Origin: a virus
Lineage: Duplodnaviria > Heunggongvirae > Uroviricota > Caudoviricetes
DNA: 22,063 bases
Virus record (IMG/VR): IMGVR_UViG_2778261447_000003
Strand: one strand, 5' to 3'
This document shows, piece by piece, positions 346 through 22,063 of the stretch. Under the pieces are notes generated by a model, which saw only the letters and a program-made list of their open reading frames with translations, was not told the DNA's origin and made no database searches. The stretch's first letter is position 1. Every line of letters begins with the position of its first letter. The position numbers were made by a program, and so were the translations under genes.

Positions 346-350
346 TAGTT
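340..350. other. Approximate prophage/host junction (att core) inside icd
   Basis: Icd-coding homology stops abruptly at about 345-351 and is replaced by AT-rich non-coding sequence. The exact core cannot be defined without the other prophage end. Confidence 0.5.
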
Positions 351-577
351 AGATGACTAAATCGTAACTATTTGACATAGCAACATAATTTTACTAATTT
401 GCATATAACTCATTAGCCCTTAGCATTTCTATAACTCATTGATTATAAACATGTGTTTTTGAGTTTTGATAACCATTTTTAGCATAAAAATAGCAGTTAA
501 CATTTGCAGAAGTTAAGATCAGAAAAATTTTTACCCTGTAGGGTATTACGTCTTAAATGTGACTTTAATAAATAATT

Positions 578-1411
578 TTATTTCTGTAATCGGTTTATAT
601 TAACGTAAAGCATCTCGATTAGTTCTTTTGCATTTTTACTATAGTGCAATTCTCTATGGCAATTCGGACAAAGGGCAACACAGTTATCTGTTGTATCAGC
701 ACCACCTGAAGACAGGGGAATTACATGATGCACTTCCAAATATGGGTTTCCATCATTTAAATAAAACGGAGCATTTTTACCACAGTTTTCACATATACCT
801 TTACTTTGCTGTAAAATCCAAGCTTTTACCATCGGGTCTCGGACATAAACTTTTTGTAGTCTTTCTACCTCAACTGGTTTCCTGGAGCCCTCGGGTTGAC
901 TCAACGTTTTCTTAATTAATTTACTAACCCTCATATTCAGAAGCGATTCATCATCTGTAGGCTGTGAAAGCTCTGATAGTTCTCCACGTATTATAGACGC
1001 CCAAAAACTGTCACTATAAATACCTGGAACATTTATCAATATTCGTTTCGTTCTATTGCCGGAAGGAATTTCCTTTCTCCCCGTACGACTAAAATAAGCC
1101 TGATAACCACACATCTTCAAGCGTATATCGCGGGGGCTATTACCAATCAAAGAAAAATATTCACCAGGATGGATTTTTCTTTCATCCAAAGAATGCATAT
1201 GTTTTCTGACTGATGATGACGCCAGATATACTACGACTTGGGATACACCAGAATCAACCAACCGTTCAATGATATAATCAAGAGCGATATTGTAATCTTT
1301 GTTTCTGTCACCCGGCCCCCACGACTCAAGGATTAGACCATAAACACCATCCTCTTCACCTATCGAACACTCAGCTTTCAGTTCAATTCCATTGTTATCA
1401 AAAACATGCAT
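578..1411 (-). CDS. mcrA: McrA, 5-methylcytosine-specific HNH restriction endonuclease (277 aa)
   Basis: Complete ORF with ATG start. C-terminal HNH motif CENCGKNAPF...EVHHVIPLSSGGADTTDNCVALCPNCHRELH. Length and position next to pin at the prophage end match e14 mcrA (recalled). The gene is AT-rich relative to the structural module. Confidence 0.88.
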   Translation of the reverse strand: MHVFDNNGIELKAECSIGEEDGVYGLILESWGPGDRNKDYNIALDYIIERLVDSGVSQVVVYLASSSVRKHMHSLDERKIHPGEYFSLIGNSPRDIRLKMCGYQAYFSRTGRKEIPSGNRTKRILINVPGIYSDSFWASIIRGELSELSQPTDDESLLNMRVSKLIKKTLSQPEGSRKPVEVERLQKVYVRDPMVKAWILQQSKGICENCGKNAPFYLNDGNPYLEVHHVIPLSSGGADTTDNCVALCPNCHRELHYSKNAKELIEMLYVNINRLQK

Positions 1412-1517
1412 AATATTAATCTTTAATCAATTTTTCACGACAATACTACTTTTATTGATAAAATTGCAACAAGTTGCTGTTGTTTTACTTTCTTTTGTAC
1501 ACAAAGTGTCTTTAACT

Positions 1518-2072
1518 TTATTTATCCCCTGCAGGAAACCTCTTATACAAAGTTGACACACCAACATCATAGATAATCGCCACCTTCTGGCGAGGAACTC
1601 CTGATGCAATTAATCGTCCGGCCTGTTCCCATTGTTCTGGTGTAAGTTTGGGACGACGTCCACCAATTCGTCCCTGTGCGCGAGCAGCTTCCAGTCCAGC
1701 TTTTGTTCTTTCAACAATCAGTTCACGCTCCATTTCAGCCAGGGCACCCATCACATGAAAGAAAAAGCGCCCCATTGGGGTACTGGTATCAATTGAATCC
1801 GTCAGACTACGAAAGTTGATGCCTCGTTCGCGCAACTCCTCCACCAGCACGACAAGATGCCGCATACTGCGCCCCAGTCGGTCCAGTTTCCAGACCACCA
1901 GCGTATCACCTGCCGATAATGTCCTGAGCAGTTTTTTCAGTCCCGGCCTTTCGGACTTTGTACCGCTTATCTTGTCTTCAAAAATCAGCTCGCATCCTGC
2001 ACAGTTCAGCGCATTACGTTGTAGATCTGTGTTCTGGTCATTTGTTGACACACGTACATAGCCAATAAGCAT
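1518..2072 (-). CDS. pin: Pin/Gin/Hin-family serine DNA invertase (184 aa)
   Basis: N-terminus MLIGYVRVSTNDQ contains the catalytic serine motif of small serine recombinases; a helix-turn-helix lies at the C-terminus. I place the start at the ATG at 2070-2072, which has an AGGGAG Shine-Dalgarno about 8 nt upstream, not at the track start 2108. Adjacent to inverted crossover sites. Confidence 0.9.
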   Translation of the reverse strand: MLIGYVRVSTNDQNTDLQRNALNCAGCELIFEDKISGTKSERPGLKKLLRTLSAGDTLVVWKLDRLGRSMRHLVVLVEELRERGINFRSLTDSIDTSTPMGRFFFHVMGALAEMERELIVERTKAGLEAARAQGRIGGRRPKLTPEQWEQAGRLIASGVPRQKVAIIYDVGVSTLYKRFPAGDK

Positions 2073-2126
2073 GGTAGATCTCCCTGACAAAAGCAGGAAT
2101 GATGCCATTTGCTCGTTATTTCTGCA

Positions 2127-2152
2127 TTTTCATAAACGTTGGTTTGGGAGAA
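2127..2152. repeat. Invertase crossover site, left (hix/gix/pix-like 26-bp site)
   Basis: ttttcataaacg-tt-ggtttgggagaa. The inner 14 bp (2139-2152) are a perfect inverted repeat of 4012-4025. Resembles the hix/gix 12-2-12 architecture (AAAACC..GGTTT). Confidence 0.75.
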
Positions 2153-2650
2153 GGCTCTGCATTACCTGTTGGGGTTCCTGTTCCGTGGCCTTCAGCCACT
2201 CCGCCAACAGGCTGGCTGAAATGCAACGGAGCAGCTTTTTCTGCTGAAGAATACCCGGAGCTGGCAAAGGCTTACCCGACAAATAAATTGCCTGATTTAC
2301 GTGGTGAGTTTATTCGTGGCTGGGATGACGGACGTGGTATGGATACGGGGAGGGCAATATTATCCGCTCAGGGCGATGCCATACGTAATATCTATGGTGA
2401 GTTCAAGACTGTAAACACCGAAAATTATTCAATATGGGAATCAGTAGGCTCGTTTAAGGGGGCAGTAGTGCCTTTGAACCCCTCAACGAACAATAGTTAT
2501 TTCTCCTTAATCAGAAGTATGGTGACAGAAAGAACAGATGGCGCTGTTTACCCAAAAGTGATTGGCCTTGATGCTTCAAGAATTGTTCCAACTGCAAACG
2601 AAAACCGTCCTCGTAACATTGCCTTTAATTATATCGTGAGGGCTGCCTGA
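2141..2650 (+). CDS. Silent alternative tail-fibre C-terminal cassette (variable receptor-binding part), expressed only after inversion
   Basis: Frame is continuous from the crossover site. Encodes LPVGVPVPWPSATPPTGWLKCNGAAFSAEEYPELAKAYP, the phage tail-collar type motif of Mu/P2-type fibre C-termini. The ATG at 2099 in the ORF track lies outside the segment and is probably not a real start. Confidence 0.65.
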   Translation, partial: GLGEGSALPVGVPVPWPSATPPTGWLKCNGAAFSAEEYPELAKAYPTNKLPDLRGEFIRGWDDGRGMDTGRAILSAQGDAIRNIYGEFKTVNTENYSIWESVGSFKGAVVPLNPSTNNSYFSLIRSMVTERTDGAVYPKVIGLDASRIVPTANENRPRNIAFNYIVRAA

Positions 2651-3252
2651 TGAATAAAGCCGTATTAAATAACGAACTCATTGCCATAAAAGCGGGAGTC
2701 ATTACCATTTATAATTATGATGGTGAAACGCGGGAATATATTTCCACATCAACTGAATATCTTGCGGTTGGCGTCGGTATCCCGGCATGTTCTTGTTTAG
2801 ATGCACCAGTTACACATAAAGCTGGTTATGCAATCTGCCGTTCTGCAGATTTTAACTCATGGGAATATGTGCCAGACCATCGCGGTGAAATCATCTATAG
2901 CACCGAAACAGGAGAATCGAAAGAAATCACAGCTCCGGGTGATTATCCTGAAAATACAACCACTATCGCCCCGTTAACGCCATACGATAAATGGGATGGT
3001 GAGAAATGGGTGACGGATACCGAGGCACAGCATAGCGCCGCAGTAGAAGCGGCAGAAGCACAGCGCCAGTCGCTGATTGATGCTGCAATGGCTTCCATCA
3101 GTCTGATTCAGCTGAAATTACAGGCCGGGCGGAAGCTGACGCAGCCAGAAAACACCCGACTTAACGCTGTGCTGGATTATATTGACGCGGTGACGGCAAC
3201 AGATACCAGCACAGCGCCGGACGTCATCTGGCCTGAACTGCCGGAGGCGTAG
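2650..3252 (+). CDS. Tail fibre assembly protein (Tfa/gpU-like, 200 aa), alternative orientation set
   Basis: Start ATG overlaps the stop of the upstream cassette (TGATG). C-terminal motif DYIDAVTATDTSTAPDVIWPELP is typical of Tfa chaperones. Possibly the tfaE counterpart. Confidence 0.8.
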   Translation: MNKAVLNNELIAIKAGVITIYNYDGETREYISTSTEYLAVGVGIPACSCLDAPVTHKAGYAICRSADFNSWEYVPDHRGEIIYSTETGESKEITAPGDYPENTTTIAPLTPYDKWDGEKWVTDTEAQHSAAVEAAEAQRQSLIDAAMASISLIQLKLQAGRKLTQPENTRLNAVLDYIDAVTATDTSTAPDVIWPELPEA

Positions 3253-3664
3253 GCCATTCAATATCTGGCGCACCGGAAGTATCGACCAGTTCCAGTGCGT
3301 CCAGATAATCCAGCCACAAATTATATTGCGCCAGTTCCTCACCTTTCAGGCGACCAATCGCCGCTTTACCAGGCCATTGCTTACTGTTTATGTATTCGTT
3401 GACCTGATTAATCAATTGCTGCTTTTCCAGTTCGGCTGCGGCAATTTGTTCCTCATGAGTTGGCGGTGGAATATCAATCCATGCAGGCATTCCGTCGATG
3501 ACACCTCTGTATTTTCCTTCTGGTGCTTCCTTCATAAATTCGGCGGCAACAGTGTCGTCAATTTCGATTCCATCACCGGGCCATTCGCCGGATTCCTGAT
3601 AAGCGATTTTAAGCTCCACAGGGAAAAACGCATTTTTATCGGCACTGAAAATATATTTCTGCAT
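3224..3664 (-). CDS. Tail fibre assembly protein (Tfa/gpU-like, 146 aa), currently expressed set
   Basis: Immediately downstream of the tail-fibre gene. C-terminal motif WLDYLDALELVDTSGAPDIEWPTPP. Its 3' end overlaps the convergent tfa gene by 29 nt. Confidence 0.8.
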   Translation of the reverse strand: MQKYIFSADKNAFFPVELKIAYQESGEWPGDGIEIDDTVAAEFMKEAPEGKYRGVIDGMPAWIDIPPPTHEEQIAAAELEKQQLINQVNEYINSKQWPGKAAIGRLKGEELAQYNLWLDYLDALELVDTSGAPDIEWPTPPAVQAR

Positions 3665-3666
3665 TT

Positions 3667-4314
3667 CTACCGTCCTATCGAAATATAACTGAATCTGTAT
3701 TGCTGTGAGATATCACTGGTTGCCACACGCCACGCTGAATTACTGATATGTTCAAAATTTACAGACAAAACCTGCGGGGCAGGATTCGACGGGTCTGACT
3801 GAACGGCATCAGACATAACACTGACTGAAACCATCGGCTGATTAGGGAATGGTATAGGGAAGTGTCCACTGATAAAGCGGGTCGTGTTTCCTGAAAAAGT
3901 GCCAAACTGAACAATATATCCACCTGGTAGCCTGAACCATCCCGAACCAGAAGCGAATGCTCCCATATCCGGTATCTGATTATCTCCTGTGCCCACATTC
4001 CGTTTTGCCGCTTCTCCCAAACCAAGGTTTTCGAGAGCCGTTTTCACCGTGCCATCCGATTTGATATCGCCAAACGGATTCTTGCGGCTTAACAGCAGCG
4101 CACGAAGCGCGGTAAGCAGCTGGTCGTGCCGCGCCTTCTCCAGGCTGGCACCGGATGCCTCCACCACGCTACAAAGCTCTTCCTGCAACATGTCAAAGTA
4201 GTCATCATCCAGATCGGTGGCAGGCGTGCCGGTCTGGGGGTTGCCACGGGTAAAACCGTTCTTACCCGCGCCGAACTTATCCTTCTGCGCGGTTTTCGTG
4301 TCTATGCGATGCAT
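3667..4314 (-). CDS. Tail fibre protein (215 aa): constant N-terminus of about 97 aa fused through the right crossover site to a variable C-terminus
   Basis: ATG at 4312-4314 with GGAG Shine-Dalgarno. The crossover site is read in frame as ENLGLGE. Synteny places it between the baseplate genes and tfa. Possibly the stfP counterpart. Confidence 0.7.
4012..4037. repeat. Invertase crossover site, right (hix/gix/pix-like 26-bp site)
   Basis: ttctcccaaacc-aa-ggttttcgagag; its reverse complement is ctctcgaaaacc-tt-ggtttgggagaa. The inner half is identical to the left site; the outer half is close to the hix consensus. Confidence 0.75.
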
Positions 4315-4317
4315 GGA

Positions 4318-4902
4318 TTACTCCGGATATTTAAAAATTACGTAGGTATGAGACGGACAGAGTTTGTTAAGCACACATTCGACAACGGTGTCGCCCCAGA
4401 TACGCAGTGCGGAATCACAGGGATCGCCACATGTCATCCAGGTGGTGTTTGTGGCGGCTGGCATGTTGACCTGCCAGTAATACCGCCATTCCGGCGCATT
4501 CACCGCGTCAGTACAGGCCGATGAGCAGGTGAACGTGCTTTTGTCGTATCGCGTGATGGTAGCGTCTGGTCTGCCCAGGGCAGCAAGCTGTGCAAGATAA
4601 AAATTCTCGTTGATGCCGCCCGCCAGGTTAACCTTCGCATCCAGCCGTTGCTGACGCTGGCGAAGGGTCTGTGTCCCTGCGGGAATACATTCATCCGGCA
4701 GACCGCACAGACGCTCCCAGCGGTTTATCAGTTCAGTGGTGGTGCGCGGATCCAGCTCCCGCATCAGGGCATCCGCACGCTGATGAACGCGGGTTAATGA
4801 CGGTGCCGCACCGGCAATCGACGGATCGCTGGCTGACCACGCCGGACCGGGGGGCAACAGTGCCGACAACAGACGGATGTAATCATCGTTTGTCACGTCC
4901 AT
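4318..4902 (-). CDS. Mu gp48-like tail/baseplate protein (DUF2313 type, 194 aa)
   Basis: Cys-rich C-terminal region. Position between the baseplate J-like gene and the tail fibre gene. Resembles e14 YmfQ (recalled). Confidence 0.6.
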
Positions 4903-5951
4903 GAAATCGTCCCCAGTACCGCCAGTTCATTTTTTGCAATGGAGATATTGTCTGCCGGTGCAAGCAACTGATGGCTGTATTCCCCGTTCGCACCGGAAAT
5001 CGCCTCACTGATACGCGATACCTTCAGTTCTCCCTGCGGATAACCATCACGCAGCAGGAACGAACGCAACTCCGCGGTGATGGCAGCCCGTATTTCCGGT
5101 GTGTCCGGCGTCACGCGGATATGAAAATCCACCGTATGTGCCACCGGCCTGAACACATACAAATCAGAGCCTGCCACCGGGGCCAGTGGCCCGATATGTT
5201 GTCTTGCCGCCGTTTCCGTTGATTCTTCCGGAATGGGATTAATCAGGTCACTGCTGGCAATCATCACACCGACAGTTCCCGTTCCCATCCAGTGACGGTA
5301 TGTCCATGCGCGGGTAATGCCGGGCACTTCTTTAGCCCAGACGACATAGTCCCCGTCAGCCCCGCCCTGCGGCGTCCAGTAATACCGCTCAATGACGCGG
5401 GCGCGCCACGTTTCCAGCTCTTCAGTATCAAATCCGCCTGTCAGGGTGTCAGCCACACCGGAAGACGGCAGACCATTCACCGGCGTGACCAGGATTAATG
5501 CCGTACCGTCGTCAGCGTTACCGACCGCGCCTGCACTTGAGCAGGCGATCGGCACGCGCAGGACACCACCGGAGCTGGTTGCATCGGCAGTTGCCGTGTA
5601 CTGAACCAGGTCATCGCGCTGAATAACACTCCCGGCGGTCACCTTCAGGCCATCGCTGACACCTTCCCAGCGCATATACCCGCTGGCAGCCGTGGCCCCC
5701 TTGCGCGGACACCGTTTCATCGCAGCATGTCGCGCCAGCCAGGACTCATCGCACAGGTCAGGCAGCATGTTCATTGCCAGATAATCGATGTACCCGTAAA
5801 CCGTATGCAGCGCCGCCGCATACACCTTTGCCCGCACGTCTTCATCCATGCGCCGGAGCGTGTCGCTGACGTCCAGCCTGGCGAATAAATCGTTACGGAG
5901 CATACTGATATTTTCTGCCAGCGTCGGGCGCTGAAATTCACTGTCCGCCAT
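4893..5951 (-). CDS. Baseplate J-like protein (Mu gp47 / P2 gpJ family, 352 aa)
   Basis: Size and position in the baseplate cluster; overlapping start and stop with neighbouring genes indicates an operon. Confidence 0.7.
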
Positions 5952-6366
5952 GCGTTATCGCACTCCACAGATCATCAAAAGAAATCATTACCGGTCCGTC
6001 ACGACGCCAGAGGGTGATACTGTTACCCAGTTCATTAATCCCGGTGCGGCGGATATCCAGATCAATACGGGACACCACGCCGTCATCAATCATCCATTGC
6101 AGGCATTCGCGGATATACCCCCTTACCGTCAGCACCAGCTGATTGGTCAGTTTGCTGCGCTGAAGCAGCCACAGTCGGGAGCCGTAACGGTCATTCTGTA
6201 CCGCAGGCCAGGTATCCCCCCACCATCCCATCGGGACGTCGGCGTTGTCATCAGGCTCCGCCCGCCGCCAGGTAAACAGGGAAATCACCACGGCGCGGGT
6301 CAGCGGATCCAGCGGTGCGCTGGCGCAGGTGCGTTTACCGTTCACCGTCAGCCACAGTTCCATCAT
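5938..6366 (-). CDS. Mu gp46-like baseplate protein (142 aa)
   Basis: Small protein between the spike and J-like genes; Mu-like gene order. Confidence 0.6.
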   Translation of the reverse strand: MMELWLTVNGKRTCASAPLDPLTRAVVISLFTWRRAEPDDNADVPMGWWGDTWPAVQNDRYGSRLWLLQRSKLTNQLVLTVRGYIRECLQWMIDDGVVSRIDLDIRRTGINELGNSITLWRRDGPVMISFDDLWSAITHGGQ

Positions 6367-6911
6367 GCCTCCATCGCTTTATCAGGTTTGTCGGTGTTAC
6401 TGCCCTGACCGTTCTCTCTGTGACGATGCCCGTTATAGGCAAGCCGCATCGCTGACATGGTGGTGCCGCTGGAGTCGCACAGGTCTTTCACCTGTCCTGT
6501 CACTTCCAGGTCCATTTCAAAACGTGCTTTAGGTGAATTGCGAAACGTGATCGTTTTACCTGCACCGTCCACCACGATCCCCTCCCGGGTCAGCGTCACG
6601 GACTGCCCCTGATCGTCATAGACAGCCACCTCACCAGTCTGCAGCCCTTTCAGGCGGTAGCGCCGGTCCGACACCGTAACAACCACCGCATGAGAACGGT
6701 CACCATCCGGAAACAACACCACCGCTTCCGCACCGCTGTTTGCTCTTGCGGTAAAACCGTAGGGTTCAAGATGTTCAACCCCGGCTTTGGGTTCACCGGC
6801 AATCAGGGACACATCCACGGTCTGACATTTCGTGGCGGCACTGATGCTTTTCACCACCGCCCGCCCAATCAGGCCGAGGAGTTGTCGCTGTATGGTTTCA
6901 ATCGCCTTCAT
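6363..6911 (-). CDS. Baseplate assembly/spike protein (Mu gp45 / P2 gpV-like, 182 aa)
   Basis: Synteny and size. Start overlaps the stop of the upstream gene. Confidence 0.65.
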   Translation of the reverse strand: MKAIETIQRQLLGLIGRAVVKSISAATKCQTVDVSLIAGEPKAGVEHLEPYGFTARANSGAEAVVLFPDGDRSHAVVVTVSDRRYRLKGLQTGEVAVYDDQGQSVTLTREGIVVDGAGKTITFRNSPKARFEMDLEVTGQVKDLCDSSGTTMSAMRLAYNGHRHRENGQGSNTDKPDKAMEA

Positions 6912-7990
6912 CAGAACGGGTCCTCCTGTACTCTGGCTTTTTTCTTTTTCCGCGCGCCGGGGGCTTCGGGTTCAGGCAGATAAGCATCAGGTGGGCCGAC
7001 ACGGATTTCCGTCAGGGTGCCATTCTGGTCCTGAGTAAACGTGACTTCCGAGACAAGCAGTTCGGTATTGTCGAAACCACAGACCGGATCGAAGACAATC
7101 ACCCGCTGGTTGGGCTGCCACAGCGTACCGTTACCCTGTCGCCAGCCCTGCACCACATAGGTGGTTTCATCCGTCCGCGCCGCCCGTTGTCGGGCTTCAA
7201 AGTCAGCACGCGCAATACAGCCTGCCCCCGTAGCCTGCCCTGTCTGCCTGATATACATCGGACGGTAACGGGCAATAAATGCATCCTCTGTGCGGGCCCG
7301 CAGCGCGGTGGTGGTGGCCTCACCGAAATCATCGTCGTTTCCGGCACGCTGCCCCGCCACCTGGTAAACTGAAAACCGCTCCCGGATACTCTTCTCCGTA
7401 TCACAGGAAAGGATGTTTTCCCCAAGTACCAGCGCGGTATGTGCCTGCGTTGAGCCAATACCACCAATCACCAGCCTGCCGTGCGGGTCGTCATAAGCCA
7501 GCGCCTGCTGCTGACCGAGTATTTTGTTGATCACCTCGATCACCGTTTCACCGTGATCAGGCTGGACATCCGGAATAACACCCGACGGCGCATCGCTGTT
7601 CACCACCTCAATGCCGAAAGGCGCAGCAAGCGCCTGCGCAATCTGTACCAGCGATCGTCCGTTAAACTGTGTCGGTTCGGCTGCACAGTCAATCAGGTCA
7701 GCAGTCAGACTACGTCCGGCAATACCGGTGCTGACCGAACGGGCATCGTAACGAACGGGGGTCGCCTCCACCCAGCCGGTGATCACCAGCTCATCACCAA
7801 TCAGCACTTCCACTTTTGAACCATTTTTAATGCGCGGCTGAAGCGTGGTGATACCCTCATCACCCGGCCACTGGCGGGTGATCTCCACGCTGAAATCCCG
7901 CGCCAGCCGTTCAATACCGGCACCGATGCGCACCGATGTCCAGCCATTCCACTCCCGGCCATTTACCCGTAGCGTGACATTGTCGTTCAT
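6911..7990 (-). CDS. Baseplate hub / late control D-like tail protein (Mu gp44 / P2 gpD family, 359 aa)
   Basis: Size, Lys-rich C-terminus (ARKKKKARVQ), and position after the DNA circulation protein gene. Confidence 0.7.
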   Translation of the reverse strand: MNDNVTLRVNGREWNGWTSVRIGAGIERLARDFSVEITRQWPGDEGITTLQPRIKNGSKVEVLIGDELVITGWVEATPVRYDARSVSTGIAGRSLTADLIDCAAEPTQFNGRSLVQIAQALAAPFGIEVVNSDAPSGVIPDVQPDHGETVIEVINKILGQQQALAYDDPHGRLVIGGIGSTQAHTALVLGENILSCDTEKSIRERFSVYQVAGQRAGNDDDFGEATTTALRARTEDAFIARYRPMYIRQTGQATGAGCIARADFEARQRAARTDETTYVVQGWRQGNGTLWQPNQRVIVFDPVCGFDNTELLVSEVTFTQDQNGTLTEIRVGPPDAYLPEPEAPGARKKKKARVQEDPF

Positions 7991-9315: not shown

Positions 9316-9330
9316 ATAAACTCCGTACAT

Positions 9331-9356: not shown

Positions 9357-9375
9357 TTAACAGATTAATTTTTCA

Positions 9376-13474: not shown

Positions 13475-13628
13475 CGGTGTTCACCTTTTTATTCACGCGC
13501 CGGATATCACCCGCTGCTTCACGGCGCAGCCAGTAGTTGTTCTCGTCAACATTTCGCCCTTCGGTGGGCAAAAGGTCACCGCGGGCAGGGTCAGGCACTG
13601 ACCGCCCTTTAACAGGTTTCACAAACAT
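13458..13628 (-). CDS. Small conserved phage protein (56 aa), not in the supplied ORF track
   Basis: ATG at 13626-13628; translation MFVKPVKGRSVPDPARGDLLPTEGRNVDENNYWLRREAAGDIRRVNKKVNTDDDKL. Stop overlaps the sheath start region. Resembles the small ORF found upstream of sheath genes in Mu-like tails. Weak ribosome binding site. Confidence 0.4.
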   Translation of the reverse strand: MFVKPVKGRSVPDPARGDLLPTEGRNVDENNYWLRREAAGDIRRVNKKVNTDDDKL

Positions 13629-13636
13629 GAAGATTC

Positions 13637-14197: not shown

Positions 14198-14700
14198 CTG
14201 TGTCGTCGCTCCGGCTTCAGTGATTTACGCAATTCCCGCGCCAGAAAATAGCGTGTCCAGCTGCGGTTCTTTTCAAGCGTTTCCACCATGAAGTTATTAC
14301 GTGGAGCCAGTCGCCAGCCGCTGCCACCGGATGCACCACGATGATGGCTGCGACGACGCTTTGCCCCTCGCCTCACGCCATAGAACAAAAAAGCCGGATA
14401 AAAATCACCGGTGATACGGCGGTTTCCCTCTCCATTACGCTGGTTAGGGGCTATACGTGCCATAAAACCAGGACGATGTTTACTGGCTCTGGGTACCATG
14501 TAACCAATCGAACGAGCCAGGCGTCCGGTCTGATAACCGGGGTTTTCACCCGGTGCCGACCGCGCACGGCGCATCACCAGCCGACGGGCATCACGCATAT
14601 GACGCTGACCAATCGTGACAAACGCCCGCCGGACACGGGCGCGGTTAAAGCGCATCTCCGCGGGCTGCTGAAAATCAACGTGCAAAAAGGAAGTCGCCAT
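14194..14700 (-). CDS. HK97 gp10-like virion morphogenesis/neck protein (168 aa)
   Basis: Arg-rich basic protein; ATG with GGAGG Shine-Dalgarno; position after the head-tail adaptor. Confidence 0.55.
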   Translation of the reverse strand: MATSFLHVDFQQPAEMRFNRARVRRAFVTIGQRHMRDARRLVMRRARSAPGENPGYQTGRLARSIGYMVPRASKHRPGFMARIAPNQRNGEGNRRITGDFYPAFLFYGVRRGAKRRRSHHRGASGGSGWRLAPRNNFMVETLEKNRSWTRYFLARELRKSLKPERRHR

Positions 14701-15085
14701 TGTTGCCTCCGTGACTCTGCGTAAATTCGCCCAGCTCCGTACACTCCAGCAGCAGAAAGCGCCGCGCCCCGTTCAGATCACGCTGACGTTTCACCCGGTA
14801 CACACTGTCACCGCAGACCACCTCATAATCAGCGGTGATCCCCCGGCGGTAGCGAATGGTGATGTAATGGGTGATGGCGTCTCCGGTCTGCGCGGTTTCC
14901 TGCCAGGTAGTGGCACTGGTCTGGACAACCTTCGCCCATGCCCGGAACGCAACCGGATATTGAGGCTCCACGCCAAAGTTATCCGCGGGCATATCCACCC
15001 GCTGGCGGATCAGGACGCGTTTATTCAGTTCGCCGGGGTCCGGCAGAATGTAGGTTGCGCTGGTCTGCGCCTGACGAATTTTCAT
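14675..15085 (-). CDS. Head-tail adaptor / head closure protein (136 aa)
   Basis: Start overlaps the stop of the connector gene (ATGA); size and position typical of head-tail joining proteins. Confidence 0.6.
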   Translation of the reverse strand: MKIRQAQTSATYILPDPGELNKRVLIRQRVDMPADNFGVEPQYPVAFRAWAKVVQTSATTWQETAQTGDAITHYITIRYRRGITADYEVVCGDSVYRVKRQRDLNGARRFLLLECTELGEFTQSHGGNNGDFLFAR

Positions 15086-15405
15086 TGCGGAAAGTACCTG
15101 TACGGGCCGACAAGCCAGCTAAAACTCTGCGGCATGTCGAGTTTCTCCACTTCCGTAACCGAAGAGCGGTTTTCGTAAAAATGGCTGATAAGCATCAGCA
15201 TCCCCAGACGAATATCATCCGGCAGGTGCAGCCCGTCCGGATCGCTGTCCGGAATGGTTTCATCCGGTGCATAGAGCTTCCGGTTCAGATACGTTTCCGT
15301 CCGCTTTTGCGCCGCACAGGCCAGCAGTTGCAGATGGCGGTCATCAGCATCGAAATCCTCATCCAGCCGGAGTTGGGCTTTAATCTCTTCCATTGTCAGA
15401 AGCAT
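15082..15405 (-). CDS. gp6-like head-tail connector protein (107 aa)
   Basis: Small acidic protein between the capsid region and the adaptor; typical location. Confidence 0.6.
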   Translation of the reverse strand: MLLTMEEIKAQLRLDEDFDADDRHLQLLACAAQKRTETYLNRKLYAPDETIPDSDPDGLHLPDDIRLGMLMLISHFYENRSSVTEVEKLDMPQSFSWLVGPYRYFPQ

Positions 15406-15407
15406 AC

Positions 15408-15608
15408 TCAGCCCTCTTTACTGGTCGTGGCTTTTTTCTCTTTTGCCGCTTTACTGCTTTTTGCACTGGTTCCGCGCTCTGCTAACCCGGCCTGAAGTGC
15501 AATCTCCTGCACCCGGGCAGGAAGCGCCCCGTCGTCATACTCACCGGCCCGAATGACCTCAACACGCATACCGTCCGGTGACCATTTCAGATCTTGTTTC
15601 AGGATCAT
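15408..15608 (-). CDS. Hypothetical small protein with Lys/Ser-rich C-terminal tail (66 aa)
   Basis: ORF between the major capsid gene and the connector gene; C-terminus SAKSSKAAKEKKATTSKEG. Function unknown. Confidence 0.4.
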   Translation of the reverse strand: MILKQDLKWSPDGMRVEVIRAGEYDDGALPARVQEIALQAGLAERGTSAKSSKAAKEKKATTSKEG

Positions 15609-15627
15609 GATTCTTCACCCGTCAGAA

Positions 15628-15652
15628 CAGGGGGCGCGGTTCCGCGCCCCTG
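15628..15652 (-). terminator. GC-rich hairpin immediately 3' of the major capsid gene (partial terminator or mRNA stabiliser)
   Basis: cagggggcgcgg-ttcc-gcgcccctg is a near-perfect inverted repeat located 6 nt after the capsid stop; only a short T tract follows on the minus strand. Confidence 0.35.
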
Positions 15653-15657
15653 AATGA

Positions 15658-16863
15658 TTACGCCGCTGCAATCTTCAGCAGTTTGATGGCCTGCGAATCG
15701 ACCAGCATCCCGCCGGTGCGCTTGGTGGTATAAAAACCGACAAACGGTTTATTGGTGTACGGATCACGCAGAATGCGGGTGCCGATACGGTCAACGATGG
15801 TGTAACCCCGTTTGAAGTTACCAAATGCAATGGCTTTCGCATCAGCGGCGATATCCGGCATCTGTTCGTTTTCAGCGATACCGTAACCCGCCAGAGAGGA
15901 CGGCTGCCCCAGTTCCAGCCCCGGACGCCACAGATAGTTACCCTCGCTGTCTTTCAGCAGACGGATGGCAAACAGGCTGTTGTTGTTCATCATGAACTTC
16001 GCGCCAGTGCGGTGTGCCTTACGTAGCGTGTAAATCAGTTTGATAATGGCGTCTGCGGTCACCGTCGTCGCTTCACCGGATACAATATGCTGAAGTTTGC
16101 CGAACGCCCGGACCTTGTCGGTTTCATCAGTGGATTCATACGCCAGGAACCCTTTCGGCTTCTTGGTGCCATCGCCTGAGGTAAAGGCAATTTCTTCCTG
16201 TTCGGCAAATTCGGTTGCCAGCTCGCTGTTGATCCAGGCCTCTACGTTGAAGAAGGCATCGTCCAGCATTTTCTGGGTAGCCTGCGGGTTGCCGTAGATT
16301 TCCCCCATGAGAGGTTCAATCAGCTCCAGTCTGGAGGTGGCAGTCTGGGATCGCGTATCCGTTTCCCCCACCCATCCGGAAGCCGTACCGCCCAGATTCA
16401 CCAGTTTTTTGTAGTCGGAACCGCCAACGGTGATCACCGTGGCTTCCTGACGCATCACCACTTCATCTTTCAGCAGGTTAAGAATGTTGCGATCCAGTTC
16501 TTCCGGCACGGCGTAGCCACCGTCTTCATCGGTACCCACCTGCAATGCCTTACGCTCCAGATCGCGCAGACCGTCTTCACGGCCTTTACGCAGGAAGCCC
16601 ACAAACGCCTCTTTATGCTCGGTGGCCAGTTTATTTTGCGCTCCACCAGCCGGACGTTTCAGCTCAAGCAGCTCTTTTTCAAGGTCGCTTTTGAGATTTT
16701 CCAGCTCGCTGAGTTTCCCGTTCAGGGTTTCCACCTGCCCGGCAAGCTTGCCTTTTTCCTGCTCAATCGCATCCACGCGCTTGTCGTTCTTTACTTTGAA
16801 GTCGTCAAACTTCTGCTGCAGCTCCTGCGCGATCTGTTCCACATCTTTAATATCAACCGCCAT
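15658..16863 (-). CDS. Major capsid protein, HK97 fold family (401 aa)
   Basis: N-terminal coiled-coil scaffold-like (delta) domain rich in E, K and L, followed by a capsid-like body; follows the prohead protease gene. Confidence 0.88.
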   Translation of the reverse strand: MAVDIKDVEQIAQELQQKFDDFKVKNDKRVDAIEQEKGKLAGQVETLNGKLSELENLKSDLEKELLELKRPAGGAQNKLATEHKEAFVGFLRKGREDGLRDLERKALQVGTDEDGGYAVPEELDRNILNLLKDEVVMRQEATVITVGGSDYKKLVNLGGTASGWVGETDTRSQTATSRLELIEPLMGEIYGNPQATQKMLDDAFFNVEAWINSELATEFAEQEEIAFTSGDGTKKPKGFLAYESTDETDKVRAFGKLQHIVSGEATTVTADAIIKLIYTLRKAHRTGAKFMMNNNSLFAIRLLKDSEGNYLWRPGLELGQPSSLAGYGIAENEQMPDIAADAKAIAFGNFKRGYTIVDRIGTRILRDPYTNKPFVGFYTTKRTGGMLVDSQAIKLLKIAAA

Positions 16864-16877
16864 CGTATTTCTCCTGA

Positions 16878-17528
16878 TTAGAAGTTCAGATTTTTCAGTG
16901 CATTCAGTGCAGAGCCCACATCCTCAGCGTCGCGCAGGGACAGTGCGCCATAGCCCCCGGCCATGAATGCTTTGGCCTGGGTACGGGAGAGTCCGACATC
17001 ACGCAGGACTCTTTCGATTTTTTTCTGTTCGGGGATTTCACCGCGGGCCAGCGCGTTCTTGACGTCGCTGATCCGCGCCTCGTCGTTAGACGGGAACGTC
17101 ACCAGACTGACTTCCCAGAGGTCGATTTCTTTCAACAGAAAGGCTTCTTTACTCCGGTCGTATTCCCAGTCTTTCAGGACGTACCCAATAGAAAGGCCGG
17201 TTAACGAACCGGCCTTCATGTGTGCATGTGCGCGTTTTGCGAGGGGATCATCATCAATGAGCAACCGTCCCCTGACGTAAAGCCCGACATCGTCTTCCTT
17301 CATTTCGGTATAAACACCGATGGGTTCATCCATGCGGTGCTGCCAGAGCAGCGCAGGTAACGCTTTTCTGTCACTCCACGCCCGCAGGGAAGCAGCAAAT
17401 GCCCCGGACATCACCACATCATCGTGGCTGTCCTTTACACCAAAGACGGAGCCATACCCTTCAAACTCACCGGAGTCACTGACAGATTTCAGACTCAGCG
17501 GTACATCAAGACGTTGTTTCGTCTGCAT
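16878..17528 (-). CDS. Prohead maturation protease, HK97 family (about 216 aa)
   Basis: Position between portal and capsid genes. I prefer the ATG at 17526-17528 (AAGGA Shine-Dalgarno) to the track start at 17564, which has none. Confidence 0.8.
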   Translation of the reverse strand: MQTKQRLDVPLSLKSVSDSGEFEGYGSVFGVKDSHDDVVMSGAFAASLRAWSDRKALPALLWQHRMDEPIGVYTEMKEDDVGLYVRGRLLIDDDPLAKRAHAHMKAGSLTGLSIGYVLKDWEYDRSKEAFLLKEIDLWEVSLVTFPSNDEARISDVKNALARGEIPEQKKIERVLRDVGLSRTQAKAFMAGGYGALSLRDAEDVGSALNALKNLNF

Positions 17529-18747
17529 TGGCGTTATCCTTCTGCTTACCGGCTTTACTGCCATCGGAGGGTTTCGTGGTCATATTCATCGGTGTGAGAT
17601 AGACATCACCACCGGGACGCGGATTCATATCTTCCAGGTCGCGGCAGTCATTGGGAGAGTAAATTCCCCAGTTGATCCCGGTGGCATAGGCTTCAAAACG
17701 GGACTTCATATCCCCGCGCAGTAACGCCCCGGCGTTAAATTTGGCGTAATAAATGCCCTGCTTACTTTTTCGTACCAGTCCGGTGTTGATCCGCTGCTCA
17801 ATGCGGGTCAGATACGGCACCAGTGAATAGTTGATAAATCCCAGCCCCAGCTCTTCGATATTGTTGAAGGTGGCGCGATCGGTGTTCTGCACCATGTGCA
17901 ATGGCACACGGAACAGACGACAGATTTCTTCAAGCTGAAACTTGCGGGTTTCCAGGAACTGGCTGTCCTCGGCGTTCAGCGCCATCGACTTCCAGTCCAG
18001 CCCCATCTCAAGGATCATCGGGCGGTGAGCATTACCAAGCCCGGTGTGACGCTCCTCAAAATCTTTCTTCAGGCGCTCGTAAGCCTGATCCGACAACGTC
18101 TGCTCTGTACGCAACACACCCGACGTCACCGCACCATTGCTGAACAGTCTGGCCCCGTGCTCTTCGGTCGCTGCCGCCAGCGATATTGCCTCGCGGGCAT
18201 AGGCGATGGGATTCAGCCCCACCAGTCCGTCCAGCGTCAGCGTGCGCACATGCCAGATATCTTCCTGGCTCAGCACATCCGTGGAGCCGTCCGGGAATGT
18301 GACCTGATAGACCGGCTCCCAGCTACTGTTAAGCTTCGGTACCACACAGCCGGGATCGACGGGCAGCAGTTCAGCCACTTCGCCAAATGCTTTCACTTTG
18401 TAGGCGTAAAAGTTTCCCCTCAGGCACAGACAGGTGACCACCAGCTCCCAGAACTCCTGCGGCGTCATATAGCCATTGGGATGCGTGGAGATCAGTTTAT
18501 GCAGACGTTCGCCGGTGGCTCTCTGCTTCAGGCTGCCGTTCAGGTGATACAGATTGCAGGGCAACATCCCGACCGACTCTGCCAGCACTCTGACGCAGGA
18601 AAAAACCGCCGTCAGTCGCATGGCCCGCTGACTGCTGATCTGCTTTCCGGTATAGGTGTCGTAGGACAACCCGATGGCATCCGCCAGCTCTGCTGGCGTG
18701 GTCACCGGTGCGTCACTTTTTCGTTGAAATAATCCAGAAAAGAACAC
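17506..18747 (-). CDS. Portal protein, HK97 family (413 aa)
   Basis: GTG start at 18745-18747 with GGAGG Shine-Dalgarno, overlapping the stop of the upstream small ORF; size and position after the large terminase. Confidence 0.88.
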   Translation of the reverse strand: MFFSGLFQRKSDAPVTTPAELADAIGLSYDTYTGKQISSQRAMRLTAVFSCVRVLAESVGMLPCNLYHLNGSLKQRATGERLHKLISTHPNGYMTPQEFWELVVTCLCLRGNFYAYKVKAFGEVAELLPVDPGCVVPKLNSSWEPVYQVTFPDGSTDVLSQEDIWHVRTLTLDGLVGLNPIAYAREAISLAAATEEHGARLFSNGAVTSGVLRTEQTLSDQAYERLKKDFEERHTGLGNAHRPMILEMGLDWKSMALNAEDSQFLETRKFQLEEICRLFRVPLHMVQNTDRATFNNIEELGLGFINYSLVPYLTRIEQRINTGLVRKSKQGIYYAKFNAGALLRGDMKSRFEAYATGINWGIYSPNDCRDLEDMNPRPGGDVYLTPMNMTTKPSDGSKAGKQKDNANADETTS

Positions 18748-18929
18748 TATTTACCTCCGCCGACAGACGACTGTGTACGGTCGAGATATCGCGCCACCAG
18801 CCACGACCAGAACAGGCACAACGCCCCGGCAACAACAAACCCCGCCGGGGGATAAATCAGCCAGGCACCATACGCCAGCAAAAGCGCCCCCAGCACGCCC
18901 ACCAGAGGCGCGAGAATCAGCATGATCAT
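18747..18929 (-). CDS. Small two-helix membrane protein (60 aa)
   Basis: [51 protein letters not shown] has two hydrophobic helices. GAGGT Shine-Dalgarno 5 nt upstream of the ATG; translationally coupled to the portal gene. Possibly the counterpart of e14 YmfR. Confidence 0.6.
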
Positions 18930-18940
18930 AATTACCTCAG

Positions 18941-20674
18941 TTAAAGCGAGCGGATCCCATAGGACTCAATGTGGTCAGACAGCGTGTCTTCTTTCTCGTA
19001 CAGCATGGCTCTGCCAACCGCCATAATCAGCGCAACTGCACCATCGATTTTGTTTTCCGCCTGCTCTTTGACGGGCTTCACTAAATCATCGTTACCTGGC
19101 ATGTTTTTGCCGACCACATTGCCGATACACCAGGTCATGATGGGATTGCCGTCATGATGAAAGCGTCCCGATTCAATCGCTGCCTCCAGCTCTTTCATCG
19201 GGTCGGACATATTGGCGAAGTTCTGGACGATAGTAACGGGATTCAGGTCTTCATCAGCAAGGTCATGTGACAGCCCGGTCGCTCCGAAAGGGTCGATGGG
19301 TGACTCACTGACCGGGCTGATTTTGTTCGCCGCTTTGGCCTCTTCGAGGATGTAGCGATAATCCACCTCTGCACCATCGGTAACGGTCAGAACGCCCATT
19401 TCCACCCATTTCTGAAAGCGTTCGGCTGTCCGGCGATCTTCATTTTTCTCGACGCTGTACACCGTGTCATACGGTACCCAGAAACGCGGGGCCACACTGT
19501 AGTAATGCGTTTTACCGTCAATCTCGCGGGTATAAAGTCGCGCCATGCTGTTCATATCCAGTTTACGCGCCATGTCAAAGGCCAGAATGCACGGCTGCCC
19601 CTCGAACTGCTCAAGAGTCAGTGATTTATCCTCGCAGCTCTGCCAGCTCACCAGGTTGAAATACGCCGAACGCGCCGACACCCAGATATTGAGGTGTTTT
19701 GTTTTAAAGACGTTTGCCAGACGGGCGTTATTTTTCGCACGCTGCTGCTGACTTAACAAAAATTCGCGATAAACCGACACGCCAATATTTGGATTGGCTT
19801 TTTCCAGCACCTGCGGGTTGGTCCAGTCGTCACCTTCGTCAACGGTATAGATGATCCCGAACAGTTCATCGTTGGGTACCGAACCGTTGAGCATCTCGAT
19901 AACTTCCCGTCGCTTGTCGTAGCACGGCCCCTCAATGTTGTACCCGGCAGTAGTAATGGCCCACATCAGTGGCTGACGTCGCGCCCCCATCCCGGTAAGC
20001 ATCGTGGTGTAAAGCGCATCGGTGGCGTGCTCGTGATATTCATCCACCACCGCACAGTGGGGTGATGAACCATCACCGGGGTTACCGATCAGCGGTTCAA
20101 ACCGCGCGCCATCCTCCGGACGATTCATGTTTGAGGCGTTAACCTCAATCCCGAACGCTTCCGTCAGCATGGGTGTGCGTTTACACATCAGTCGCGCCGG
20201 GCGAAAGACTTCCCACGCCTGTTTCTCTGTCGTGGCACCGGAATACACTTCCGCGCCAAACTCGTTATCACAGACAAAACAATACAGGGCAACACCGGCA
20301 GAGATTGCCGATTTGCCGTTCTTACGGGGGATTTCGGTATACACCTCCCGGAAGCGGCGCAACCGGGTGCCTTTATTGACCCAGCCAAACGCACAGCAGA
20401 TCACAAAGAGCTGCCACGGCTCCAGCGTGATGGGCATCCTCTTGAATGCCCACTCACCCTTGGTGTGCGGCAACAGCTGAATAAATTTCGCGGCCCGTTC
20501 AGCCAGGTCCTTGTCGAAGCGGTAACGAAACGACTTACTTTTTTCCGCCATCAGGTCATCAAGATGGCGCTGGCAGGCCTGAATCACAAACTGGCAGGCC
20601 ACAATCTTTCCGCGAACGACATCCCGGGCATACTGATTGGCAGCATTTACGTTGGGGTAAGATTTCCGGCTCAT
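18941..20674 (-). CDS. Terminase large subunit (577 aa)
   Basis: Walker A-like PRKNGKS, C-terminal nuclease-like domain, size; start overlaps the small-terminase stop (ATGA). Confidence 0.92.
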
Positions 20675-21165
20675 GATTCGATGATTTTCAGAAACGGGTT
20701 AGTGGCTTTCTTCTTCCCCGCCAGGCCAATCAGACGCTGGCGGCTGCTGGGGTCGAGTCCGAGCATTGCCCCCGTACTGCTCATCTCGGACTCCTGTTCT
20801 TTTTTGGCGGTCAGCTCCGGATTTTTGACCATACCGCCCATTGCACCGGTGATGGTATTGCCCTGTCTGGCAATATTTTTCACGGCACGTCGCCAGAACT
20901 CGTAGGCCACGCACCACCGCTCAAGCACTGCGAGGTCAGTCACGCACAGCAGGCCCTGACCGCAGAGTTCTTTGGTTGTCAGTTGCCACATGATCGTAGC
21001 GAGAGGGAGATCTTCTTCAGCGAACCACTCCGGTGGCTCAACACCTTTGATGGGCGTAAAAACAGGTTCATCTTTATTCAGGGCTCGCTTGCCGGGGTTT
21101 CCGGCCAGCGCCTTGCGCGCCGTTGGCTTGGGGCGACGCCCGGAACGCCCCGCCGTTCCAGCCAT
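20671..21165 (-). CDS. Terminase small subunit, P27 family (about 164 aa)
   Basis: Basic N-terminus; directly upstream of and overlapping the large terminase. The track start at 21174 is a GTG; the ATG at 21163-21165 has an AGGAG Shine-Dalgarno. Confidence 0.8.
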
Positions 21166-21290
21166 ATGCGGCACTCCTGGTTAAATTTCATTTTTCGCGG
21201 GTATAAAAAAACGATGGGGCGGGCAGTCCGGAAGACGTCAGGTCACAGGGATTTGCCCCCCCCCTCCCCTCTGGCAGTGGGAACTGGTTC

Positions 21291-21641
21291 TTACTTCAGC
21301 CGTTCACGGGCCGTCTTCGCCTTATGACACGGCCAGCACAAACTCTGCAGATTACTGTCGACATCAGTGCCGCCATGCGATTTAGGGTTGATGTGGTCAA
21401 CGGTCTTCGCCTCACGCACCACACCAGCACGCAGACATAACTGACACAGGCCTTTGTCACGCTTGAGCACACGTTCACGGATAACATCCCATTTCGAACC
21501 ATAACCGCGCTGGTGTCGGGATTGTCCTGACTTGTATTGCTTCCAGCCTTCGCTTTTGTGGCTTTCGCAGTAGCCTGACGAGTCAGTGGTGGTATGGGGG
21601 CAGCCGCGAACGCGGCAGGCTTTTGGGGTTCGTGGTGGCAT
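21291..21641 (-). CDS. Phage HNH endonuclease of the packaging module (about 116 aa)
   Basis: HNH/zinc motif CQLCLRAGVVREAKTVDHINPKSHGGTDVDSNLQSLCWPCHKAK. ATG at 21639-21641 with AGAGGA Shine-Dalgarno; the track ORF extends 21 codons further upstream. HNH next to terminase is typical of HK97-like packaging. Confidence 0.8.
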   Translation of the reverse strand: MPPRTPKACRVRGCPHTTTDSSGYCESHKSEGWKQYKSGQSRHQRGYGSKWDVIRERVLKRDKGLCQLCLRAGVVREAKTVDHINPKSHGGTDVDSNLQSLCWPCHKAKTARERLK

Positions 21642-21791
21642 TGCATAATCCTCTTGGATGGTTCGCGTGCGATACGTGGCATCCTTCTCAGAATCGAATC
21701 GCACTCCACTCCGGTTTTGCCATAAACGATCTTTTATGCTTCGCTGGATGTAGTTGATAGTTGTTGAAACTCAATGAACAGGAGTTCACAA

Positions 21792-22063
21792 ATGAATAGT
21801 TATGAATGGGAATGGCTTTTAAACAAAGATGACACCCTATGCTTTTTCCCCGTAGGCCATTCTGTAGAAGGTAATTACAAAATTCACTTTGAGTTGAGCG
21901 GTAGTTGTAACCTTAGAGTCTCAGATGCTGAATGGCATGGTAAACCTGTACTGCTGTTCGAATACTTCGATGAAGATGATGACCGCTGGATTTGCCCCTA
22001 TATTTCCAGACATCTGTTATCACTTAACCCATTACAAGCCCGCTGCCGCAGATATTCCCGTGG
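21792..22063 (+). CDS. Hypothetical protein, 5' part only (at least 90 codons, runs off the window)
   Basis: ATG at 21792 with AGGAG Shine-Dalgarno 8 nt upstream; open to the window end (MNSYEWEWLLNKDDTLCFFPVGHSVEGNYKIHFELSGSCNLRVSDAEWHGKPVLLFEYFDEDDDRWICPYISRHLL...). Divergent from the packaging operon and AT-rich. Not in the track because no stop lies in the window. Confidence 0.5.
   Translation, partial: MNSYEWEWLLNKDDTLCFFPVGHSVEGNYKIHFELSGSCNLRVSDAEWHGKPVLLFEYFDEDDDRWICPYISRHLLSLNPLQARCRRYSR

Follow-up and report, generated by a model that had tools for sequence, protein, structure and literature searches.

The icd side of the prophage and the ends of the contig

The window, which is the whole stretch of DNA analysed here, is a complete 22,063-bp draft contig with an IS1 end on one side and an IS2 end on the other, and its prophage sequence extends from 346 to 21986. 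The two ends and the icd side harbor the following features:

1–77, no strand: last 77 bp of IS1 (overlap at the contig end), matching the end of K-12 IS1A at 100% identity
181–345, minus: icdC, the displaced icd 3' end on the attR side, 165 nt, within a 97.9% alignment to K-12 1211680–1209408
578–1411, minus: mcrA, type IV (5-methylcytosine-directed) HNH restriction endonuclease, prophage cargo, 277 aa; 99.6% amino acid identity to K-12 McrA; Pfam HNH
1518–2072, minus: pin, serine DNA invertase, 184 aa; 97.8% amino acid identity to K-12 PinE; Pfam Resolvase and HTH_7
21792–21986, plus: accessory ORF, first 65 codons of 111 aa, broken by IS2; phrog_14397 positions 1–65 of 111
21987–22063, no strand: last 77 bp of IS2 (overlap at the contig end), matching K-12 IS2A on its insD-side end at 100% identity

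The alignment to K-12 starts at window position 78, corresponding to K-12 1211680, and the K-12 stretch that it covers includes the pseudogene icdC (1211413–1211577). The icdC of the window matches the functional icd of K-12 at its 3' end with 87% identity and directly adjoins the prophage, the arrangement of an element integrated in icd with a displaced 3' fragment, of which the window shows the attR side only. The IS1 piece lies outside the prophage and adjoins the final base of the iraM stop codon. The initial annotation had placed the element at 350–22063; its start is about right, because the K-12 annotation puts the prophage boundary at 345/346, but its end is not, as the prophage stops at 21986 and the remainder is IS2. 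The IS1 and IS2 ends of the contig had escaped that reading, and so had the nearest relatives, SfII, SfI, SfV and SfIV.

Since the terminal 77 bases of the window are an IS2 end, IS2 interrupts the prophage at 21986/21987. To judge from the place of the neighboring genes in relatives, the site is a small accessory ORF, with the HNH and terminase genes on one side and the expected lysis cassette on the other. The complete 111-aa gene is present in relatives L006 and L012–L021, and, among contigs with the HNH protein of the window, all 10 relatives examined lack IS2 at this site.

McrA, as a member of its family, would guard the lysogen from DNA with modified cytosine. Pin, with its Resolvase (1.5e-51) and HTH_7 (1.4e-13) domains, has the make-up of a Din-family invertase and lies beside the segment described below. 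A putative Fis-dependent recombinational enhancer in the 5' part of pin is expected to be conserved, because the window and K-12 are about 98% identical around pin. Scans of the whole window with Rfam (at gathering thresholds) and for tRNAs gave no matches, and a near-identical annotated homologue exists for every protein.

The invertible tail-fibre segment

Next to pin lies the segment that this invertase is predicted to turn over:

2134–4030, no strand: invertible P segment of 1,897 bp with a 20-nt inverted repeat at either end (2134–2153 and 4011–4030)
2099–2650, plus: silent alternative tail-fibre C-terminal cassette, stfE-like; PHROG tail fibre/collar families; 58% amino acid identity to K-12 StfE
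2650–3252, plus: tfaE-like chaperone for tail fibre assembly, paired with the silent cassette; Pfam Caudo_TAP; 91% amino acid identity to K-12 TfaE
3224–3664, minus: tail fibre assembly chaperone, partner of the currently expressed cassette; Pfam Caudo_TAP positions 2–130 of 131; 56% amino acid identity to K-12 TfaP
3667–4314, minus: tail fibre in the current orientation, 215 aa; Pfam Gp53-like_C; 69% amino acid identity to the SfII short tail fibre and 55% to K-12 StfP

The inverted repeats agree at 19 of 20 positions and lie so that the constant N-terminus of the fibre is encoded outside the segment (4031–4314) and its variable C-terminus within it. When the inversion was simulated, the fibre gene stayed in frame in both orientations, giving a protein of 215 aa or, by in-frame fusion to the stfE-like cassette, one of 266 aa. 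In E. coli strain 4 (L022) the segment is found flipped, with breakpoints exactly at the repeats. By these features, the Pin-invertible tail-fibre segment is genuine.

The arrangement is that of the other Din-family segments (Mu G/Gin, P1 C/Cin and e14 P/Pin), in which a serine invertase lies beside two opposed sets of a fibre C-terminus and its chaperone, and the crossover sites are placed inside the fibre gene, so that the constant N-terminus joins either C-terminus. There is no difference in kind, and the window has the e14 P segment with other receptor-binding alleles. By analogy with its family, Pin would flip the segment and so give rise to virions with either the 215-aa or the 266-aa fibre, each with its own chaperone, and this may change the host range.

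Structural and packaging genes and their Shigella relatives

Beyond the fibre gene, the minus strand carries baseplate, tail, head and packaging genes, followed by cos and an HNH gene:

4318–4902, minus: gp48/YmfQ; Pfam Phage_Mu_Gp48; 97.4% amino acid identity to K-12 YmfQ
4893–5951, minus: baseplate J/gp47; Pfam Baseplate_J
5938–6366, minus: gp46; Pfam GP46
6363–6911, minus: gp45/V; Pfam Phage_Mu_Gp45
6911–7990, minus: gp44/P hub; Pfam GpP domains
7987–9357, minus: gp43 'DNA circulation' protein; Pfam DNA_circ_N
9376–11211, minus: tail tape measure, 611 aa; Pfam PhageMin_Tail; 99.3% amino acid identity to SfII_16
11204–11622, minus: tail assembly chaperone, 89 aa (11353–11622), with a -1 frame extension; Pfam Phage_TAC_7
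11622–11978, minus: tail tube; Pfam Tail_tube
11978–13474, minus: sheath; Pfam Phage_sheath_1
13458–13628, minus: DUF2635 protein; Pfam DUF2635
13637–14197, minus: tail terminator; Pfam Phage_tail_terminator
14194–14700, minus: tail completion/neck; PHROG connector family
14675–15085, minus: head closure; Pfam Phage_HCP
15082–15405, minus: head-tail connector; Pfam Phage_connect_1
15408–15608, minus: 66-aa ORF within the HK97-like head block
15658–16863, minus: major capsid; Pfam Phage_capsid
16878–17528, minus: S78 prohead protease; Pfam Peptidase_S78
17506–18747, minus: portal; Pfam Phage_portal
18747–18929, minus: ymfR, within the HK97-like head block
18941–20674, minus: terminase large subunit, 577 aa; Pfam TerL_ATPase/TerL_nuclease; 99% amino acid identity (SfII_01/02)
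20671–21165, minus: terminase small subunit, 164 aa; Pfam Terminase_4; 99% amino acid identity (SfII_01/02)
21216–21225, minus: cos cohesive-end sequence TGCCCGCCCC, seen directly in the sequence
21291–21641, minus: HNH endonuclease encoded upstream of the terminase, a packaging accessory of the HK97 type; Pfam HNH; PHROG HNH families

The Pfam families found (portal, S78 protease, capsid, sheath, tube and homologues of Mu gp43–48) bear out the initial annotation, which had described an HK97-like head joined to a Mu-like tail, and its claim of a complete, full-length morphogenesis block also holds. Each of the 22 SfII proteins for packaging, head, tail and baseplate has a colinear, full-length and gapless match in the window, at 94–100% amino acid identity (96–99% to SfII_17–22 in the baseplate block, 4318–9357; 98–100% in the tail block, 11622–14700; 94–100% to SfII_03–09 in the head block, 14675–18929), and the comparison revealed no frameshift or stop codon in the structural genes. 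The block looks fully functional on this evidence. In the tail assembly chaperone gene, the slippery sequence T_TTT_TTC (11371–11365) is in the correct phase four codons ahead of the stop, with the -1 frame open to 11204; a -1 frameshift would here produce the long form of the chaperone, as in its family, and the capsid would likewise mature through the S78 protease.

At the DNA level, the window is 97–98% identical to SfII, SfI, SfV and SfIV over about 17 kb (roughly 3964–21280), which points to these inducible Shigella myoviruses, beyond e14 alone, as its nearest characterised relatives. SfI has been obtained by induction and proved to be a myovirus that uses cos (PMC3636060), and the decamer at 21216–21225 is identical to its experimentally determined 10-nt end (PMC3636060). 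The SfI record starts beside this cos position. The terminase and the HNH protein would, by analogy with their families, cut at cos and leave 10-nt cohesive ends.

Such close similarity raises the question of whether the element could itself be a serotype-converting phage of the SfV/SfII type, with the thrW site and gtr genes for O-antigen modification. In the Sf phages a fixed fibre and tfa are followed by gtr genes and int, with integration at thrW (PMC3636060); in SfII, the order downstream of the tail fibre is tfa, an acyltransferase, an IS, gtrII/gtrB/gtrA and int. In the window, on the contrary, the similarity to the Sf phages ends at about 3964, and the fibre genes adjoin the Pin-invertible cassette, mcrA and the icd fragment at the attachment site, which runs on into the chromosome on the iraM side. 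No gtrA, gtrB, type-specific gtr gene or int was found downstream of the fibre genes, their place being taken by pin, mcrA and icdC, and this identity is refuted for the window; a serotype-converting phage is thus highly improbable here.

Turning to the e14 side, we propose, with a probability of about 0.9, a temperate myovirus prophage of the e14/SfV family that sits in the 3' end of icd and of which the window holds the attR-proximal 21.6 kb; such prophages measure about 40 kb in relatives, and nothing within the window speaks against this assignment. Its late region, read against the plus strand, leads from cos, HNH and the small and large terminase through the HK97-like head and the Mu-like contractile tail and baseplate to the tail fibre, beyond which lie Pin, mcrA as cargo and the 3' end displaced from icd.

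The K-12 remnant and the state of the prophage

The e14 element was reportedly analysed by Mehta, Casjens and Krishnaswamy in 2004. Four blocks of the window (78–2349, 2600–3379, 3996–5680 and 18340–20077) align to the right end of K-12 e14 at 88–98% identity, in conserved order and orientation. The proposed relation to e14 is thereby upheld, as is the gene order assigned to its end (icd 3' fragment, mcrA, pin, invertible stf/tfa segment, ymfQ, baseplate J), which agrees with the K-12 annotation and has flanks aligning at 97–98%. The alignment that had been suggested as a check shows similarity across mcrA, pin and tfa, and allowed the K-12 deletion endpoints to be mapped onto the window:

5681–18339, no strand: stretch missing from K-12 e14 (deletion 1, 12,660 bp), from inside baseplate J to inside the portal gene, by alignment to K-12

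K-12 beeE and jayE had been taken for fragments of the full-length portal and baseplate J genes, and they do meet at one junction, window 5680/18340, which shows a 4-bp TACC microhomology. The second deletion, of about 12 kb, starts at 20077/20078 inside the large terminase gene, and K-12 aaaE therefore corresponds to TerL residues 200–577. By this comparison, K-12 e14 is an element of the window type that has lost about 12 kb in each of two deletions. The first fuses the portal to baseplate J (beeE/jayE), and the second joins the large terminase to a replication gene (oweE/aaaE, the latter being ymfN). Both elements share the chromosomal site, the attR end and the order icdC, mcrA, pin, P segment and ymfQ; K-12, however, lacks window 5681–18339 and the late region beyond 20077, its StfP, TfaP and StfE are only 55–58% identical in amino acid sequence to the variable fibre and chaperone alleles of the window, and it is the copy of the window that carries IS2.

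Full-length prophages of the e14 type are present in 593 of 5,426 complete E. coli genomes (at least 80% coverage of the window). That of E. coli S88 (CU928161, 2,840,259–2,859,298) was set against SfI, gene by gene, as early as 2013, and is 97% identical to SfI orf1–22 (PMC3636060). In 20AR0354, which aligns to window 78–21986 as a single piece at 97.8% identity, the element is complete from icdC to icd (about 40.7 kb) and carries lysis genes, Q, replication genes, ymfK/ymfT/ymfL and intE/xisE. The record of vB_EcoM-689R6, from an in-silico prophage survey, contains pin, mcrA, matching structural genes and icd. These three, like the equivalents in many other E. coli genomes, share the element type with the window and differ from it by about 2% of nucleotides spread over the structural genes, and none has IS2 at its site. 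The full-length e14-type prophage is, then, an ordinary and widely distributed kind of E. coli/Shigella prophage that is already known, and so is the form of the e14 ancestor before the two large deletions. The prophage at icd in NC-SV was rejected as a relative of this type, being a lambda-like siphovirus. Neither the NA37 plus 404-aa cargo pair nor the ORFs of 111 and 189 aa seen in relatives gave a match in PADLOC.

As short reads and an apparently repeat-rich genome underlie this draft contig, an assembly chimera could be imagined, in which the end of an e14 remnant was joined to an unrelated SfII-like prophage from elsewhere in the genome. A complete chromosome (H1) nevertheless shows the same continuity in one aligned piece of 21.9 kb, and it recurs in the 593 complete genomes and in independent assemblies 100% or 99.98% identical to the window, which leaves next to no probability for such an artefact.

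A more substantial question is the present state of the prophage. The element had been called apparently intact; this stands for the structural block, in which all genes are full length, but not for the prophage as a whole, interrupted by IS2 at 21986/21987. The window does not extend to the lysis, replication and immunity genes, as had been correctly stated. IS2 could be polar on late transcription, or could mark a rearrangement, and either would count against a functional prophage. It is accordingly conceivable, although we would not favor it, that IS2, perhaps with other insertion sequences, marks the loss or separation of lysis, regulatory or integration genes, so that no phage is produced and the element, with its structural block intact, represents an earlier stage of the decay that gave K-12 e14. 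The contig ends would fit this, with IS2 inside the prophage and IS1 just outside it, and 67 of the 93 index blocks with the TerL of the window fall in the 10–20 kb class, which suggests an IS-rich lineage. Close relatives also show decay, TerL being called at only 498 aa in L012 and L015, the latter with a different IS in the Rz region, and K-12 itself demonstrates that the e14 family decays by large deletion. Against this, the structural genes are free of frameshifts and stops, and what IS2 interrupts is a small accessory gene encoded on the other strand. Furthermore, L006, which shares 13,046 bp with the window at 100% identity, runs on into lysis, Q and nin genes without IS2, so that the insertion must be very recent.

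The opposite outcome can be put forward just as tentatively: despite IS2, the prophage might still yield an infectious SfV-like myovirus, its host range toggled by Pin through two receptor-binding alleles different from those of K-12, that moves mcrA between strains. No published report was found in which an icd-integrated myovirus of the e14 type had been induced.

The comparison provides a base-exact picture of the origin of K-12 e14, whose significance beyond annotation is small. For the source strain, the practical points are a contig bounded by IS1 and IS2, an IS2 in the late region and a Pin switch with non-K-12 fibre alleles. The ancestral form of e14 is a common, apparently viable SfV-like myovirus and, if the prophage does still produce phage, 'e14' would be no K-12 relic but a phage lineage active at present, and one that serves as a vehicle for a type IV restriction gene.

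The e14-type prophage and its late region

The window covers the attR-proximal half of an e14-type prophage. The prophage has the late region of the Shigella flexneri serotype-converting myoviruses SfV, SfII, SfI and SfIV. These phages show 97–98% DNA identity to the window over ~3964-21280. Downstream of the fibre, SfII carries gtr genes and int, whereas the window harbors the invertible Pin segment, mcrA and the displaced icd end. A search of the window with the 24 translated late genes of SfII has revealed first-to-last-residue, gapless matches for 22 of them, the small terminase through the gp48/YmfQ wedge protein, in the same order and with 94–100% identity, so that the complete morphogenesis block proposed in the initial annotation is confirmed. 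The window and SfII fibres are 69% identical, and SfII tfa found no close match in the window in this search.

Pfam families were taken from precomputed hits on identical proteins and from scans of window proteins. The head and packaging genes belong to Terminase_4, TerL_ATPase/nuclease, Phage_portal, Peptidase_S78, Phage_capsid, Phage_connect_1 and Phage_HCP, and those of the tail and baseplate to the tail terminator, sheath, Tail_tube, TAC_7, tape measure and DNA_circ_N families, together with GpP, Mu Gp45, GP46, Baseplate_J and Mu Gp48. Because of these two sets of families, the description of an HK97-like head and a Mu-like tail is correct. The gene of the 89-aa tail assembly chaperone contains the slippery heptamer T_TTT_TTC in the correct phase (11365-11371, minus strand), 4 codons before its stop, and the -1 frame is open for 55 further codons, as far as 11204; tail chaperones conserve this arrangement for programmed frameshifting.

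SfI has been induced, seen as a myovirus and found to package from cos, and its 10-nt cohesive end, TGCCCGCCCC, has been determined experimentally (PMC3636060). The minus strand has an exact copy of this decamer at 21216-21225, where a G+C-rich sequence separates the genes of the HNH endonuclease and the small terminase.

The complete genome of E. coli strain 20AR0354, which has a complete icd-integrated relative, aligns in a single piece to window 78-21986 with 97.8% identity. Beyond the window, its element continues with a 111-aa ORF, a 189-aa ORF, lysis genes, a methyltransferase, Q and DUF968, followed by KilA-N, RusA, Dam, PerC and an O-like gene, and then by ymfL/ymfT/ymfK, yfdP/Q/R, xisE/intE, two cargo genes and icd, ~40.7 kb in total. 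Relative to this strain, the chromosomal, mcrA and pin part (window 78-2000) has 3 mismatches in ~1.9 kb, and the structural genes (2000-21986) are ~2% different throughout. The mosaic divergence from 20AR0354 suggests that related prophages have recombined.

At least 80% of the window is found in one place in 593 of the 5,426 E. coli genomes of a complete-genome collection. The e14 element was reportedly analysed by Mehta et al. in 2004, and its kinship with SfV-type phages has long been established. A full-length 'e14' of E. coli S88 was described in the 2013 SfI paper as 97% identical in DNA to SfI orf1-22 (PMC3636060). The initial annotation is thus a correct reading of an ordinary, already described element.

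Contig ends and the IS2 insertion

The window is identical end to end to the draft contig NOCS01000066.1 (22,063 bp, assembly GCA_002549495.1). Window 1-77 shows 100% identity to the end of K-12 IS1A, and window 21987-22063 shows 100% identity to the insD-side end of K-12 IS2A. As both ends are IS termini of equal length, 77 bases, the window limits are assembly breaks at IS copies and not biological boundaries; the 77-base repeat overlap would be the trace of a k=77 short-read assembler. The IS1 end lies outside the prophage and directly adjoins the final base of the iraM stop codon (77/78). On the far side of IS1, beyond the window, iraM may be intact, with IS1 as a simple insertion flanked by a 9-bp duplication, or it may be lost. 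The contig ends suggest an IS-rich host, possibly a Shigella-like one.

The IS2 end sits within the prophage, at 21986/21987, where it cuts the plus-strand ORF 21792-21986 after codon 65 of 111 (phrog_14397). In relatives, this opposite-strand ORF of 111 aa has the HNH gene on one side and the lysis cassette on the other, a typical moron position. The prophage had been called apparently intact, which holds for the structural block, as it carries no lesion, but not for the prophage as a whole, which is interrupted by IS2. A second assembly, L006, shares 13,046 bp with the window at 100% identity, lacks IS2 and passes directly into lysis and regulatory genes; the insertion is thus recent. The gene that it interrupts is small and accessory. 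IS2 was found at the window site in none of 10 relatives (contigs with the same HNH protein). Polarity is possible, since IS2 separates the lysis cassette from the packaging genes within the late transcription unit. The source prophage is probably complete otherwise; continued production of infectious particles is less likely than not.

Deletions in K-12 e14 and decay in relatives

Comparison of the window with MG1655 1,195,000-1,213,000 by blastn gives four colinear blocks, all in reverse orientation.

Blocks shared by the window and K-12 e14 (window; K-12; identity; content)
78-2349; 1,211,680-1,209,408; 97.9%; iraM end, icdC, mcrA, pinE, start of stfE
2600-3379; 1,209,169-1,208,390; 88.6%; tfaE, end of tfaP
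3996-5680; 1,207,819-1,206,135; 97.1%; constant part of stfP, ymfQ, jayE
18340-20077; 1,206,138-1,204,401; 97.2%; beeE, ymfR, aaaE

The K-12 annotation has the same genes in the order that the initial annotation gives for e14, and it sets the prophage end at window-equivalent 345/346. McrA of K-12 is 99.6% identical to the window product. Mapping of the K-12 deletion endpoints, as the initial annotation had proposed, places both junctions on the window and bears out its reading. The beeE/jayE junction joins window 5680 to 18340, with TACC common to both sides and 12,660 bp gone, leaving portal codons 1-136 and the 3'-terminal 788 nt of baseplate J; it is present in 284 genomes. The second junction (oweE/aaaE, annotated as chimeric ymfN) falls at window 20077/20078, that is, large terminase codon 199/200, and the deletion, measured on 20AR0354, comprises 12.0 kb and extends into the O-like replication gene.

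The TerL call reaches only 498 aa in two relatives, L012 and L015 (10971-12701), where a gap follows the gene of the small terminase. In L015 (CP070393.1), which at 99.6% identity to the window is the closest complete genome, the Rz region additionally contains a gene for an IS3-family transposase, from an IS other than IS2. These are independent cases of decay in the same prophage family. A two-gene cargo on the opposite strand is located between Q and the holin gene in L006 (3848-6240) and also in L012-L021. It encodes an NA37 (nucleoid-associated) protein of 391 aa and one of 404 aa without a Pfam match; the NA37 gene is shortened in L007 and L013 (287 aa) and split in L014 (237 + 158 aa). 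The pair, which has no PADLOC match, could have an accessory or defence role not yet characterised.

The invertible fibre segment

The segment is bounded by 20-nt inverted repeats at 2134-2153 and 4011-4030, identical at 19 of 20 positions, the right one falling within the fibre gene, 95 codons past its start. The fibre product now has 215 residues, and simulated inversion keeps the frame and gives 266 residues with another C-terminus. Behind each C-terminal cassette lies a separate Caudo_TAP chaperone gene. Pin, with 97.8% identity to PinE, has a resolvase and an HTH_7 domain. The switch is used in nature, because E. coli strain 4 (NZ_CP045209.1; L022 2556-4425) has the segment inverted, and its alignment changes strand exactly at window 2134-2153 and 4011-4030. 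About 10 top E. coli matches, among which only strain 4 was checked, align to 89% of the window as two pieces, which would fit a flipped or divergent segment.

The variable parts of K-12 StfP, TfaP and StfE are only 55–58% identical in amino acids to those of the window, and TfaE is 91% identical. They are receptor-binding alleles differing from those of K-12 on a common scaffold. Both receptor-binding parts and one of the two chaperones (2154-4010) have diverged, and the flanks keep 97–98% DNA identity to K-12. This comparison indicates allele swapping within the invertible segment.
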